Shown here in pieces: positions 54,599-59,047 of a stretch of DNA of 64,000 nucleotides. The stretch comes from Escherichia coli (lineage in GTDB: Bacteria > Pseudomonadota > Gammaproteobacteria > Enterobacterales > Enterobacteriaceae). Position numbers and translations under genes: made by a program. Position 1 is the stretch's first letter; each line of letters starts with the position of its first letter. The stretch lies in the NCBI RefSeq assembly GCF_030013595.1, contig NZ_CP122768.1. The stretch is one strand, 5' to 3'. A model generated the notes under the pieces. It was not told the origin of the DNA, made no database searches, and saw only the letters and a program-made list of their open reading frames with translations.

Positions 54599-55207
54599 TC
54601 AGGTGCGCTTATCGTCAACCGTTGTGCGGTATGCCAGGAGCACGTACTGATCCATCAGATCCGTCAGTGCTGCGCTCTGCTTCTGACGGTTGATGATCCA
54701 TTCCTCCAGCTCTTTTTCTGATTTCCGTTTCAGATTCTCCGTCCAGTCGTCAAGGCAGTTTCCGGTCATTAAATCAAGCCAGCAAAGCCAGACCAGTTTG
54801 AGGCGCAACTCCGTGCCACCAAACTGACGGAAGAGGCTGATCAGTTTATTTGCCAGCGAACGCTGCCTCAGACGTTCACATTCAGACAGGAGAATGCCTT
54901 CCAGCATCGGATGATGAACCAGCAGATGTTCACTGGTGCATAAATTCACTATCAGATCATCATCCAGGGGCGGCGTGGTCCGTTTGTCCGGACCATAAAT
55001 CAGCCGGTGCAGACTCTGGGGTACGATGGCAATCTCCGGTTTTTCACCATTGAATGACACCCACCCGGGCGTCAGATTATGGAAGTAGTAGATATTCGGA
55101 TGACACACGCCCCAGGATACGGCGTGCCGGGTGAAGCCGGTCAGCCATTTCTGGTAGCTTTCGTGGAGCAGCTCGTAACGGGTCTGATACTGTGGTTTCA
55201 TTTTCAT
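54599..55207 (-). CDS. Hypothetical island protein (about 202 aa)
   Basis: ORF with GAGGAA RBS before ATG-AAA-ATG; co-directional with and downstream of alpA. Confidence 0.5.
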   Translation of the reverse strand: MKMKPQYQTRYELLHESYQKWLTGFTRHAVSWGVCHPNIYYFHNLTPGWVSFNGEKPEIAIVPQSLHRLIYGPDKRTTPPLDDDLIVNLCTSEHLLVHHPMLEGILLSECERLRQRSLANKLISLFRQFGGTELRLKLVWLCWLDLMTGNCLDDWTENLKRKSEKELEEWIINRQKQSAALTDLMDQYVLLAYRTTVDDKRT

Positions 55208-55287
55208 ATTCCTCACGGGGGATAACAGGCAGCAGAACGCCGCCGGCAGGCCGGAGACTGCGTCTGTTGCAGATGAACGGTTAAGAA

Positions 55288-55494
55288 TTACGGACGGGAC
55301 TGTGCAATACGCGCCTGCAGCCAGGCTTCCACTTCGCTTTTCAGCCATCGGGAGCTGCGGCCCATTTTGATGGGCGCAGGAAAGTCACCATCCTTGATGA
55401 GTTTGTAAAACCACTTATCGGTCAGGCCGGTCAGTTGAGTGATAAATGCCATGTCGACCATCTGGTCATCCATCAGTGAAACTGGGGTGAGCAT
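55288..55494 (-). CDS. alpA: AlpA-family transcriptional regulator (prophage CP4-57-type regulator)
   Basis: HTH pattern FITQLTGLTDKWFYKLIKDGDFPAPIKMGRSSRWLKSEVEAWL. Confidence 0.75.
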   Translation of the reverse strand: MLTPVSLMDDQMVDMAFITQLTGLTDKWFYKLIKDGDFPAPIKMGRSSRWLKSEVEAWLQARIAQSRP

Positions 55495-56823
55495 GAGAAT
55501 GTTCCTCCGGATGTTGTTAAACCAGCCGGTGTGGTCATGAAAACAACGCACCACCTTCACCGGCATAACAACCGGGGAGAAACGTAAAAAATAATCGGGA
55601 ATGTGACCGCCAGGAGATAAACGGGGAGGTTACGGTGGCTGAGCCGTACCGGTATGCCGGGTGGTTGTTACGAAACGATGCTTCCGCACGCGCGCGCGAT
55701 AAAGAAGGGATGATTTTCGTGAGGAAGAGGGGAAAACTGGCGTTCTGATAATTGCAGAGTTATTTACGGGGCGGTTACGATGGGGCAGACCGTGTCCGGT
55801 GGGCAGGCGACAGGTATCACCGATGGGATAAGACTGTCTGATTGGTATTATAAATATATAAGAGAGATCAAACACATGAGATCAAATACATGAGTTCATA
55901 TATGTGAAATAAACACGGTGAGTGTGATCAGTGGGCATGATGAGAACGCAGTAGCAACAGACTGCGCTATCCCTGATAGCTGGCGTATAACCCGCGTATA
56001 TAAAACGTATCTGCAATGTACGTGAACAGAGTGCATTAAGCATCCGTCTGAGCGGTAAACATATCCGACCTGGTGAGTGACAGTCTGAGAGACCGGTTAA
56101 GTGGTGGCTCGGGAGTAATGAGTTTGGGGTGGGTACCAGAATGCCAGTCTGGCGGTATGCTGACAGTATCACGTTAATTGCAGCATAAAGTGATGAGAGG
56201 CTAATGGAAGTTAAAACCAAAGCAGTTCCGTCGTTGTTCATCCCGGGAGACGCTGGAAAAAGTGATTTCCCACACGCGTTATAAACTTACCTCTGCGGAA
56301 CTGGAAGCCTTCAACTCTGTGGTTGATCACTGGCTGGCAGAACTGACAATGAACAAGCTTTACGATCGTGTTCCCGCTTCAGTCTGGAAATATGTCATCT
56401 GAGCGTTCGGTAATCACAACTGCATCGCACCAGGTGTTATCCGCTTTGTGATTCTTATTGGCTCTTCTCAGGTTATTAAAAGCTGAATATGTTCCTGTTG
56501 TCGGGAACCAGGATAATACCGGGAACGTTAAGCGGTATAGCGACAACAAAGAATTCGAAATCAAAAGGGAATGGTGCCGGAGGCGTGGGCGGTAATGGGC
56601 TGATTTTCAGGTATTACCGGCTTACAGCGTGTGGTTGATATTGAGGGGCTGTGAGTTTCGCGTATTTGTCAGAAACCCAGACGAGTTTTCCTGTATGGGA
56701 CGAAATAAGGCAGCGGCAATACCTGGAAAAATTTAATATGGTATGAAGGAGAACCTGTCGGTTACGCTTAATATACCCGGTACACTGTCAGCTCAGGGGA
56801 TACATGAACCGTTATCTCACCAG

Positions 56824-57018
56824 CTACACAGTATATACACACTGACTGACGCTGACAGTAGTCAGCAGGACCACAATAATCAGTGCCAGCAGTATGGTAA
56901 CGATACGGTCTGTATTCCGGTAATAGCCGAAGGGGTCGACAGAACCACAATACGGGCAACATGTATTATGAGTAATCGCGTTTCCACAGTCCCTGCACTT
57001 CTTTTTGCGTATCACCAT
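56824..57018 (-). CDS. Small zinc-ribbon membrane protein (CxxC-x11-CxxC followed by one TM helix)
   Basis: 64-aa ORF preceded by strong RBS tgaggagggagtt-ATG; MVIRKKKCRDCGNAITHNTCCPYCGS... Confidence 0.55.
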   Translation of the reverse strand: MVIRKKKCRDCGNAITHNTCCPYCGSVDPFGYYRNTDRIVTILLALIIVVLLTTVSVSQCVYTV

Positions 57019-57216
57019 AACTCCCTCCTCACAGCCTTACCCGTAACCGGTTTTTTACATTAAAAAAACAACGCTGAAAATTCAACCGTCAGTCCGGAGA
57101 CGATAGTTGGGGTATCACAGAGTGCCTGAGACAGTGTCCTGCCGGAGGTCACTTCAGGGACTCTGCGCATTTTTTACGACGTGGCTATTCCGTATGAACC
57201 ATACGGAGATTTAACC

Positions 57217-57786
57217 ATGACCTACAAATACAACCCCTTCTGGCAGCAACGTATTCGTGAGACGGTGCGGCACGCACTGAATGTTCATCCCCGCCTGACG
57301 GCATTGCGGGTTGACCTGCGTTTCCCGGATGTACCGGCAGCAACGGACGCAGCTGTGATATCCCGCTTCATCAATGCCCTGAAAGCCCGAATCGACGCTT
57401 ACCAGAAACGTAAGCATCGGGAAGGTAAACGCGTGCATCCCACCACCCTGCATTACGTCTGGGCCCGGGAGTTTGGGGAGTGCAAAGGTAAAAAACACTA
57501 TCACCTGATGCTGCTGGTTAACCGGGATACCTGGTGTCGTGCCGGTGATTACCGTGCTCCGGGATCACTGGCCGGGATGATTAAACAGGCGTGGTGCAGT
57601 GCCCTGGGAGTGGATGTCGGGTGCCATGCCACGCTGGTGCATTTTCCGGCCTGGCCGGCGGTGTGGCTGGAACGCGATGATGACACTGGCTTTCAGCAGG
57701 TGCTGGAACGTGCTGACTATCTGGCGAAGGAACATACCAAAGCTCACTGCACCGGTGAGCGCAATTTTGGCTGTAGCCGGAGTTGA
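57217..57786 (+). CDS. YagK/YfjJ-like (inovirus Gp2-type) protein
   Basis: ORF from MTYKYNPFWQQRIRETVRHAL. Confidence 0.5.
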   Translation: MTYKYNPFWQQRIRETVRHALNVHPRLTALRVDLRFPDVPAATDAAVISRFINALKARIDAYQKRKHREGKRVHPTTLHYVWAREFGECKGKKHYHLMLLVNRDTWCRAGDYRAPGSLAGMIKQAWCSALGVDVGCHATLVHFPAWPAVWLERDDDTGFQQVLERADYLAKEHTKAHCTGERNFGCSRS

Positions 57787-58039
57787 GCACGACTGGCGCG
57801 CCAATATCCGGCAAACCAAAAGTATGGGTTGTTGTCTGGCGGCAACGATGTATCCACTCGCCCACTGACTGTTTTTTACGTCAGTGTTCCATTGTGTGAC
57901 AACCACAGTGCTGTAACAGCAACCAGCCTGCTTTACCCAAACTCCAGTCCAGATTTTAACTGAACCGCCATTCACACCCTGACCACGCTGCCCGTACCGG
58001 GACGGCTGTTGCCTGCGTGTCGTCTGGCGGCTAAGGAAT

Positions 58040-58447
58040 ATGACTATGTACGCAAAATCCTTTATCGCTCTTGATGGCAACGGACGTCTGACGGGCGCCC
58101 GTACTGCACAGGCCGCACCTTATGCTAACTACACCTGCCACTTGTGTGGCAGTGCACTCAGATACCATCCGCAATACGACACTGAACTTCCCTGGTTTGA
58201 ACACACTGACGACAGGCTGACAGAGCACGGTCAACAGTGCCCTTATGTCAGGCCGGAGCGCAGAGAAATACAGTTGATTAAACGTCTGCAGCAATTCGTA
58301 CCGGATGCCTTACCCGTGGTGCGTAAAGCCAGCTGGCACTGCAGACAATGTCACCACGATTATTATGGGGAGCGGTACTGCACACACTGCCAGACCGGAG
58401 GATTCAGTATTCCCCGGACAACTCAGGAGGAAATATGCGAATTCTGA
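58040..58447 (+). CDS. Zinc-ribbon protein with PWFEH motif (paralog 1)
   Basis: 135-aa ORF; CHLCG...PWFEH...CRQCHHDYYGERYCTHCQTG. Confidence 0.55.
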   Translation: MTMYAKSFIALDGNGRLTGARTAQAAPYANYTCHLCGSALRYHPQYDTELPWFEHTDDRLTEHGQQCPYVRPERREIQLIKRLQQFVPDALPVVRKASWHCRQCHHDYYGERYCTHCQTGGFSIPRTTQEEICEF

Positions 58448-58842
58448 ACTGTTATATGGCGAATGACAGCAAAGGCCATTTTGTTACGGCGAAAGAAGCA
58501 GCGAAGCACAACCGCCAGGACGTTTTGTGCTGTGTGTCCTGTGGATGCCCGTTAACACTTCAGCGGGGCAATGACGGACAACCACCGTGGTTTGAACATG
58601 ACCAGATGACTGTCGCTGAGAAAATCCTGCTGCGATGCACCTGGCTTGACCCGGCAGAGAAAGAGGCCCGTCGTTTGCATCTGCAGGGTATGACGGTTCC
58701 GGATTATACGGTGAAGGTGAGAAAGTGGTTTTGTGTGATGTGTGACGAAAATTATGAGGGGGAAAAGTGCTGCCCGAGTTGTGGTACCGGGGTATACAGC
58801 AGGGAGGGGGGGCAGGAGGGCAACTGGAAGGATAGGAACTGA
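58435..58842 (+). CDS. Zinc-ribbon protein with PWFEH motif (paralog 2)
   Basis: 135-aa ORF with AGGAGG RBS; CVSCG...PWFEH...CVMCDENYEGEKCCPSCGTG; overlaps paralog 1 by 13 nt. Confidence 0.55.
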   Translation: MRILNCYMANDSKGHFVTAKEAAKHNRQDVLCCVSCGCPLTLQRGNDGQPPWFEHDQMTVAEKILLRCTWLDPAEKEARRLHLQGMTVPDYTVKVRKWFCVMCDENYEGEKCCPSCGTGVYSREGGQEGNWKDRN

Positions 58843-59047
58843 GCGGTTCAGTCGCGGAAATCAGTTGCAGAGCTGTAATGATATCTCCGGGAGTGCTGCG
58901 TTGGTAGGGGCATCCCGGGATAGAGAAATTTTAGCACTTTGCCCTGAATGATTGTAGACGTCCCGAGTACTCGTACCGGTCTGAGTTATTACAGTTAGAT
59001 ATTCACTTTTTCTCCCGCATACTTCACATCTGTCAACGACGGATGAA

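Follow-up and report, generated by a model that had tools for sequence, protein, structure and literature searches.

Two small overlapping genes at positions 58046 to 58447 and 58435 to 58842 (both on the plus strand) of the window, i.e., of the whole 64,000-nucleotide stretch of Escherichia coli DNA analyzed here, encode what sequence comparison indicates to be an ancient pair of paralogs with predicted zinc sites, ZnA and ZnB, which belong to the conserved backbone of a family of genomic islands and may act as accessory factors of the module that they close, composed of a Gp2/YfjJ-like gene, an AlpA gene, and the pair itself. Of the identity and placement of the two proteins we are highly confident; the mechanism proposed for them is tentative and, taken by itself, rather doubtful, and the statement as a whole, ancient pair and accessory role together, we rate at somewhat below an even chance.

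Islands of the CP4-57/CP4-44 type are among the commonest mobile elements in E. coli and related bacteria. Adhesins, toxin-antitoxin pairs, and anti-phage systems are encoded on them along with metabolic genes; the regulation, replication, and movement of the islands are poorly understood. The pair described here is among the most conserved and most abundant uncharacterized genes of these islands, being present in more than half of the complete E. coli genomes, many of which have several copies of it. Its role, once shown, would fill a gap in island biology and might inform that of the zinc finger at the N terminus of CoiA. The sequence finding itself is already known, as RefSeq entries and as Pfam families without an assigned function, and a literature search on the family and its names found no paper bearing on these proteins. 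Added here are the recognition of the pair as an ancient cassette of the island backbone with a fixed A/B order, its tie to the Gp2-like and AlpA genes, and the likeness of the N-terminal domain to the CoiA N-terminal fold.

The gene pair and its junction

The second gene lies within an open reading frame (ORF) spanning 58348 to 58842 on the plus strand, in which an internal ATG at 58435, identical with the RefSeq start, opens the 135-amino-acid (aa) ZnB protein. This ATG is preceded by AGGAGG (58425 to 58430), and the TGA of the first gene stands at 58445 to 58447, so that the junction occupies 58425 to 58447 on the plus strand and the two genes overlap by 13 nt (58435 to 58447), with the sequence ATGCGNATNCTGA. 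The start of ZnA is probably the ATG at 58046, which gives a protein of 133 aa rather than the 135 aa obtained from the ATG at 58040, because homologs open with M-[YF]-A-K-S-F, the RefSeq start is 58046, and an AAGGA at 58033 to 58037 is placed 8 nt before the ATG at 58046 and only 2 nt before that at 58040. The length of 135 aa that the sequence-only reading had ascribed to both proteins thus holds for ZnB and most probably not for ZnA, the apparent equality having arisen because the longest ORF had been taken for the latter. The conserved 13-nt overlap suggests that translation of ZnB is coupled to that of ZnA. An Rfam scan and a repeat search around the two genes returned a single result, a direct repeat coding for PWFEH, which reflects the paralogy.

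Domain architecture and predicted zinc sites

ZnA and ZnB are paralogs whose similarity is far beyond chance (31% identity over 118 residues, BLASTP E = 3e-15). Both showed the same two-domain architecture in Pfam, with DUF7828 (PF25165) at residues 4 to 89 (E = 2.8e-31 for ZnA, model positions 1 to 87 of 87, and E = 7.7e-31 for ZnB, positions 2 to 86 of 87) followed by Zn_ribbon_11 (PF11682, formerly DUF3279) at residues about 93 to 128 (E = 1.3e-9 and 7e-18, respectively). The earlier description of an overlapping pair of paralogous small ORFs with CxxCG, PWFEH, and C-x2-C motifs is thereby borne out. In the N-terminal part of ZnA the motifs are C33-x2-C36-G, about 14 residues, P51-W-F-E-H55, and then C67, and in the C-terminal part they are W99-x-C101-x2-C104...Y-G110-E-x-x-C114-x2-C117-x-T-G120. 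Among 34 diverse family members C33, C36, F53, H55, W99, and C101 were invariant, and C67, C104, G110, C114, C117, and G120 were kept in at least 90%; the four cysteines of the ribbon, arranged as CxxC-x9-CxxC (C101, C104, C114, and C117), show little or no variation. Since these residues are invariant or conserved, each protein probably has two zinc sites, a predicted Cys2-His-Cys site in the N-terminal domain, with C33, C36, H55, and C67 as candidate ligands, and a predicted Cys4 ribbon at the C terminus, so that the earlier designation of the pair as small metal-binding proteins is upheld at the level of prediction.

All 34 aligned relatives matched DUF7828, and the full-length members of the family are all about 125 to 160 aa long. 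No catalytic domain was detected in ZnA or ZnB in scans against Pfam, NCBIfam, PADLOC, and PHROGs, and the last three collections gave no usable match for either protein. The names in RefSeq are "putative zinc ribbon protein," "zinc-ribbon domain-containing protein," and "DUF7828 domain-containing protein," and the UniProt names include "Ybl85." The Pfam search of both proteins, which the sequence-only reading had proposed, thus led to families of unassigned function and not to well-characterized ones, and the tandem arrangement turned out to be conserved.

An AlphaFold2 model of ZnA, built from a 20-row alignment, had a mean pLDDT of 80 and a pTM of 0.62 and comprised a beta-hairpin, a short helix, two strands bearing the CxxC and WFEH motifs, two helices, and a three-stranded C-terminal ribbon. 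Among the 50 matches listed in a Foldseek search against AFDB50 there were only members of the same family (annotated as "Ybl85," "DUF3279," and "RNA polymerase beta subunit," the last label being evidently automatic).

Abundance and distribution

The window copies of both proteins are 100% identical to RefSeq genes of other E. coli strains, and the segment from 57000 to 59500 is 99.9% identical to many E. coli chromosomes. The pair was found at a coverage of at least 80% in 2987 of the 5426 complete E. coli genomes, in which there are 8356 full or partial places, almost all of them chromosomal, with a median of 2 and a maximum of 7 per genome. In E. coli many copies are truncated, or insertion sequences (IS) interrupt them. 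Relatives of the A type fell into 322 clusters at 90% identity, from Escherichia, Salmonella, Citrobacter, Enterobacter, Klebsiella, Edwardsiella, and Serratia, and close relatives of the B type into 81 clusters, mostly from E. coli. An exhaustive profile search over 1.84 billion representative sequences yielded no more than 285 proteins at E <= 0.001, and many of these were fragments. The phage records, 50,697 in all, contained no homolog; among plasmid records only 33 had one, several of them being mislabeled chromosomes.

With an A-clade alignment as the query, which biases the survey toward A-type loci, a scan of one genome per species gave 22 loci, all enterobacterial by label except for a few in metagenome bins or isolates; the genera are Salmonella, Superficieibacter, Tenebrionibacter, Siccibacter, Trabulsiella, Serratia, Buttiauxella, Citrobacter, Yersinia, Budvicia, Leclercia, Enterobacillus, Enterobacter, and Erwinia. 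Judged from the sequence searches, the family is small and restricted to the Enterobacterales. Four loci (L020, L021, L034, and L040) come from assemblies labeled Collinsella, Bacillota, Clostridiales, and Chryseobacterium; their proteins are 46 to 96% identical to enterobacterial ones and stand in an enterobacterial island context, and the assemblies are most likely misbinned or contaminated.

Age, order, and selection

The sequence-only reading had taken the pair for a local tandem duplication. This view did not survive the comparison of genera, since the A-then-B tandem is also found in Salmonella (L006), on a Klebsiella plasmid (L014), and in Superficieibacter, Tenebrionibacter, Siccibacter, and an Enterobacteriaceae metagenome-assembled genome (L023 to L026). 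The 13-nt overlap, by gene coordinates, is present in all of these loci, i.e., in six genera including E. coli, and the junction form ATGCGNATNCTGA was read directly in E. coli, Salmonella, and Klebsiella. In a neighbor-joining tree all first-position proteins formed one clade and all second-position proteins formed other clades, a split that covers about 40 loci from some 15 genera of the Enterobacterales. The identity between ZnA and ZnB within a genome is 26 to 30%, and that between orthologs of different genera is 48 to 70%. Because the order, the clade split, and the junction are common to the genera, and because the two proteins are only 26 to 30% identical, the duplication is judged to be ancient, neither local nor recent. 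Between genera the dN/dS ratio was 0.11 to 0.19 for both ZnA and ZnB, which indicates that both are under purifying selection, although dS was saturated.

The arrangement is not uniform. Single-copy loci occur in Klebsiella (L010) and at L015, L030, and L034 to L035, and Citrobacter (L002) has a split arrangement, with a B-type gene after that of a 177-aa protein and an A-type gene after a second Gp2 gene. Some species have frameshifted B-type genes (L022 and L027). A third, more divergent clade of proteins, recognized by "MQF[RK]...[YF]FEHDLE...FCVLC," replaces the B type after the A gene in Buttiauxella, Serratia, Enterobacter, and a metagenome contig (L029, 8453 to 8896; L028, 3827 to 4234; L019, 1481 to 1909; L038, 6498 to 6932); its genes follow that of the A type after a short gap, without the 13-nt overlap.

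The island module

By the RefSeq annotation of one of the chromosomes that match the segment from 57000 to 59500, the island of the window is CP4-44-like and lies in the yee region. Its genes include cbtA/cbeA, yeeS, yeeT, agn43, one for antirestriction, one for DUF932, and those of a YeeP-like GTPase and of the YfjI family; next come an AlpA-type helix-turn-helix gene, an Hha-like gene, and that of an inovirus Gp2 family protein, and then the pair, which is followed by a pseudogene of an ISL3 transposase, a fragment of ggt, and metabolic genes. The backbone synteny of CP4-57/CP4-44-type islands (AlpA, Gp2/YfjJ-like, YfjP-like GTPase, DUF932, antirestriction, RadC/YeeS, and CbtA/CbeA) is thus present.

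We surveyed the gene context at about 40 loci from some 15 genera, several of them duplicate contexts of one species; ORFs were called at each locus and labeled by phmmer and hmmsearch, the reference proteins being drawn both from the window and from the loci. The recurrent order consists of a YfjP-like GTPase gene and a RepB-RCR_reg-like gene of about 300 aa on the minus strand, and, divergent from them, the Gp2/YfjJ-like, AlpA, ZnA, and ZnB genes on the plus strand, often followed on that strand by a second Gp2-like gene and by a gene for DUF2913 or an about 200-aa protein; a variant order is AlpA, the 200-aa protein, Gp2, and the zinc gene. A Gp2 family gene lies upstream on the same strand at nearly every locus with enough upstream flank, and AlpA is usually between or beside the Gp2 and zinc genes. 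Co-occurrence with neighbors across genomes, which the sequence-only reading had wished to see checked, is therefore found for Gp2 and AlpA. In many islands two Gp2-like genes flank the zinc pair.

The Gp2/YfjJ-like gene of the window occupies 57181 to 57786 on the plus strand (RefSeq start, 57217) and matched YagK_YfjJ_C (E = 1.3e-47) and, weakly, REP_ORF2-G2P (E = 6e-5). Its product has an HxH motif (H106 and H108) and Y180-x2-K183; about 30 of the 42 distinct homologs taken from the loci retain these motifs, which suggest an HUH-type, Rep-like protein and a candidate rolling-circle Rep of these islands. The sole sigma-70-like promoter match between 56900 and 59200 is at 57054 to 57081 on the plus strand, upstream of the Gp2 gene, and no plus-strand terminator-like site was found from that gene to the end of the ZnB gene, which weakly supports the probable cotranscription of the Gp2-like, ZnA, and ZnB genes.

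The AlpA family gene (55288 to 55494) and the gene of the recurrent, about 200-aa hypothetical protein, H200 (54599 to 55201), belong to the same island module and lie on the minus strand. Together (54599 to 55566) the two are inverted in the window relative to the Gp2-ZnA-ZnB genes; in most other genera they are directly upstream on the same strand, which suggests that the module was rearranged within the E. coli lineage. In Citrobacter (L002) a homolog of H200 directly precedes a B-type gene. Between the AlpA-type and Gp2-like genes of the window there is a short gene for an Hha/YmoA family nucleoid-associated regulator (56253 to 56402, plus strand), which in another strain is cut by IS66/IS110 insertions. 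Divergent from the Gp2-like gene is a 64-aa ORF (56824 to 57018, minus strand; MVIRKKKCRDCGNAITHNTCCPYCGS...), annotated as the hypothetical protein WP_001427456, in which a CxxC...CxxC zinc ribbon precedes a hydrophobic C-terminal helix. This is a third small zinc-ribbon gene of the module, and its product may be membrane anchored.

The border with the cargo

Downstream of the pair the content differs from locus to locus. In the window the ISL3 family transposase pseudogene (59126 to 60745, plus strand), directly downstream, marks the boundary between the conserved module and the variable content. The pseudogene has an internal stop and is followed by a gamma-glutamyltransferase fragment (60789 to 61013, plus strand) and an intact phosphotriesterase-related gene (61157 to 62191, minus strand). 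The ISL3/gamma-glutamyltransferase junction is common to many E. coli strains, so the insertion is old and was inherited with the island. At the E. coli loci the pair is followed by sugar-utilization genes or by ISL3/ggt/php; in Citrobacter (L002, 6651 to 12390) by a Dpd 7-deazaguanine cluster (QueD-like, DpdD, PLD, and helicase); in Klebsiella (L010, 6609 to 12387) by SNF2 helicase, AAA, and S8 protease genes; and at L015 (6705 to 10320) by SMEK_N/CTD10/MC6/DUF2326 genes, with an integrase beyond the cargo. The site 3' of the zinc genes behaves as a cargo or defense hotspot of the island family. Since the content upstream is constant and that downstream is not, the zinc genes close the conserved module (Gp2/YfjJ-like, AlpA, ZnA, and ZnB) and border the variable cargo; they are backbone, not cargo. 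The sequence-only reading had placed them in the cargo part of the island, which has to be corrected, the genes lying at nearly every locus with enough flank on the same strand as, and just downstream of, the Gp2/YfjJ-like and AlpA genes, with variation beginning after them.

Proposed role and rival explanations

Given that the pair is syntenic with the Gp2-like and AlpA genes and that the CoiA-type finger is otherwise joined to DNA-processing enzymes, we propose, tentatively, that ZnA and ZnB are zinc-scaffolded accessory factors which bind nucleic acid or protein and have no recognizable enzymatic domain. Each consists of a CoiA N-terminal-like domain with a probable Cys2-His-Cys site, a short basic helical linker, and the C-terminal Cys4 ribbon. 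Probably cotranscribed with the Gp2/YfjJ-like gene, and with the translation of ZnB apparently coupled to that of ZnA, they would assist Gp2, the Rep-like protein, and/or AlpA in recognizing island DNA and in controlling excision, replication, or transfer of the island, either by marking its DNA for Gp2 or by modulating AlpA-driven excision and expression. Having diverged, the two paralogs would have nonidentical jobs. The net charge of the proteins is about neutral (median pI, about 7.4 to 7.6), which counts against a classic small basic DNA-binding protein. A model of ZnA fused to ZnB through a (GGGGS)6 linker, made from a shallow, 11-row paired alignment, had a pTM of 0.40 and so gave no support for a stable heterodimer, the test being a weak one. 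Two further points count against the proposal. The copy numbers of Gp2 and zinc genes do not agree strictly, with one Gp2 and two zinc genes in the window, L031, and L032 and two Gp2 and one zinc gene in L034 and L035; and yfjJ of CP4-57 in E. coli K-12 is not known to be accompanied by such a zinc gene, so that the Rep-like protein would not be strictly dependent on one.

A bolder version of the proposal, to which we give little credence, makes ZnA and ZnB the DNA recognition subunits of a hitherto unrecognized rolling-circle replication or mobilization module, in which the YfjJ/Gp2-like HUH protein would nick the excised island where the zinc proteins direct it. If true, it would explain how CP4-type "cryptic prophages," which have neither capsid nor conjugation genes, persist after excision or pass to helper elements, and ZnA and ZnB would represent two specificities, e.g., for origin and terminus or for two Gp2 paralogs.

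The synteny with AlpA also admits of a different reading, in our view unlikely, namely, that the two proteins are transcription factors or RNA polymerase-binding cofactors that work with AlpA and switch on or anti-terminate the module or the cargo. It would agree with the position of AlpA directly upstream on the same strand in most genera, with the action of AlpA-type proteins on the transcription of island genes, with the neutral charge, which fits protein binding, and with the best PDB profile match, RPB9, which has a like layout of two zinc ribbons and a linker; that match was not significant. The place of the pair at the entry of the cargo hotspot could instead mean a small, cargo-linked anti-phage defense or anti-defense module, the more so as it adjoins defense-like genes (Dpd, SNF2/AAA/S8 protease, and SMEK_N/CTD10/MC6) in islands that also hold antirestriction genes. 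We consider this improbable, because the zinc genes are present whatever the cargo, purely metabolic cargo included, are syntenic with Gp2/AlpA and with no downstream gene, and have no homolog in the phage records; against PADLOC-DB 2.0 ZnA gave no match, and ZnB matched only PDC-S64, not significantly (E = 0.035 over 30 residues).

That the pair arose by a recent local duplication and has no function, or that its genes are decaying pseudogenes, might be argued from the many truncated or IS-interrupted copies in E. coli and from the frameshifts in the B-type genes of L022 and L027. An identity of about 30% between ZnA and ZnB, a dN/dS ratio that low between genera, an order and a junction kept across genera, and intact pairs in 2987 E. 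coli genomes make it very improbable. Scarcely credible at all is a CoiA-type nuclease, or its remnant, with the finger targeting the nuclease to recombination intermediates: the N-terminal fold and motif do resemble those of CoiA, but neither protein has a PD-(D/E)XK or PF06054 domain, and 135 residues, in a family whose members are all of about that size, are filled by two zinc modules and a linker.

Comparison with known systems

As proteins with DUF7828 and Zn_ribbon_11, ZnA and ZnB are full-length members of the family, with no difference seen from the others. Beyond the family, the RPB9/TFIIS type shares with them a layout in which a linker of some 30 residues joins a zinc module to a C4 zinc ribbon, and RNA polymerase II subunit RPB9 was the best match in a PDB profile search, with both cysteine pairs aligned but not significant (E = 0.06). 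Proteins of that type have two zinc ribbons and are polymerase bound, whereas the N-terminal site of ZnA and ZnB is of the CCHC kind in a CoiA_N-like fold; a fold search of the PDB gave no match, and membership in that type was rejected for want of a significant match in either sequence or fold.

The N-terminal domain looks like the N-terminal regions of CoiA, to whose fold it was found similar. At the sequence level the Pfam family CoiA_N (PF25164) matched ZnB with E = 0.35 and ZnA not at all; 8 of 34 relatives reached E <= 0.1, the best with 1.3e-3. An hhalign comparison with the CoiA protein P0324, underpowered because only two real CoiA_N proteins had been retrieved for it, gave a probability of 14% over 29 columns, with CxxC...PxFxH in register. 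The earlier remark on a CoiA-type finger thus stands for the fold of the N-terminal domain, the sequence support being weak and a nuclease domain lacking. CoiA, which acts in natural transformation, has a PD-(D/E)XK nuclease domain, in which its activity resides, and a long C-terminal region, whereas ZnA and ZnB have the finger and then a zinc ribbon only and come from organisms and elements unrelated to competence. Membership in the CoiA family was rejected because the Pfam scan detected no PD-(D/E)XK domain (PF06054) and the remainder of each protein is linker and zinc ribbon.

Ogr of P2 and Delta of P4 are likewise small zinc-binding proteins of P2/P4-type elements, and Delta is a tandem duplication of an Ogr-like unit. 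Similarity to Ogr was rejected, with an hhalign probability of 2% over 9 columns (for one Ogr query sequence) and no homolog in the phage records.

The island, too, has known counterparts. CP4-57, CP4-44, and the tmRNA islands of Pseudomonas (PMC12595487) have the same backbone set, with AlpA, an inovirus Gp2-like protein, and RadC, the cargo being bounded by the integrase on one side and the conserved block on the other. The Pseudomonas islands with integrase, cargo, Gp2-like, and AlpA genes are mobile, these genes have been proposed as their core functions, and their transfer by a jumbo phage has been shown (PNAS 2025, PMC12595487), in a text that mentions no zinc-containing protein for them. 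As far as sequence comparison goes, the zinc genes are an Enterobacterales-specific addition to a Gp2/AlpA backbone.
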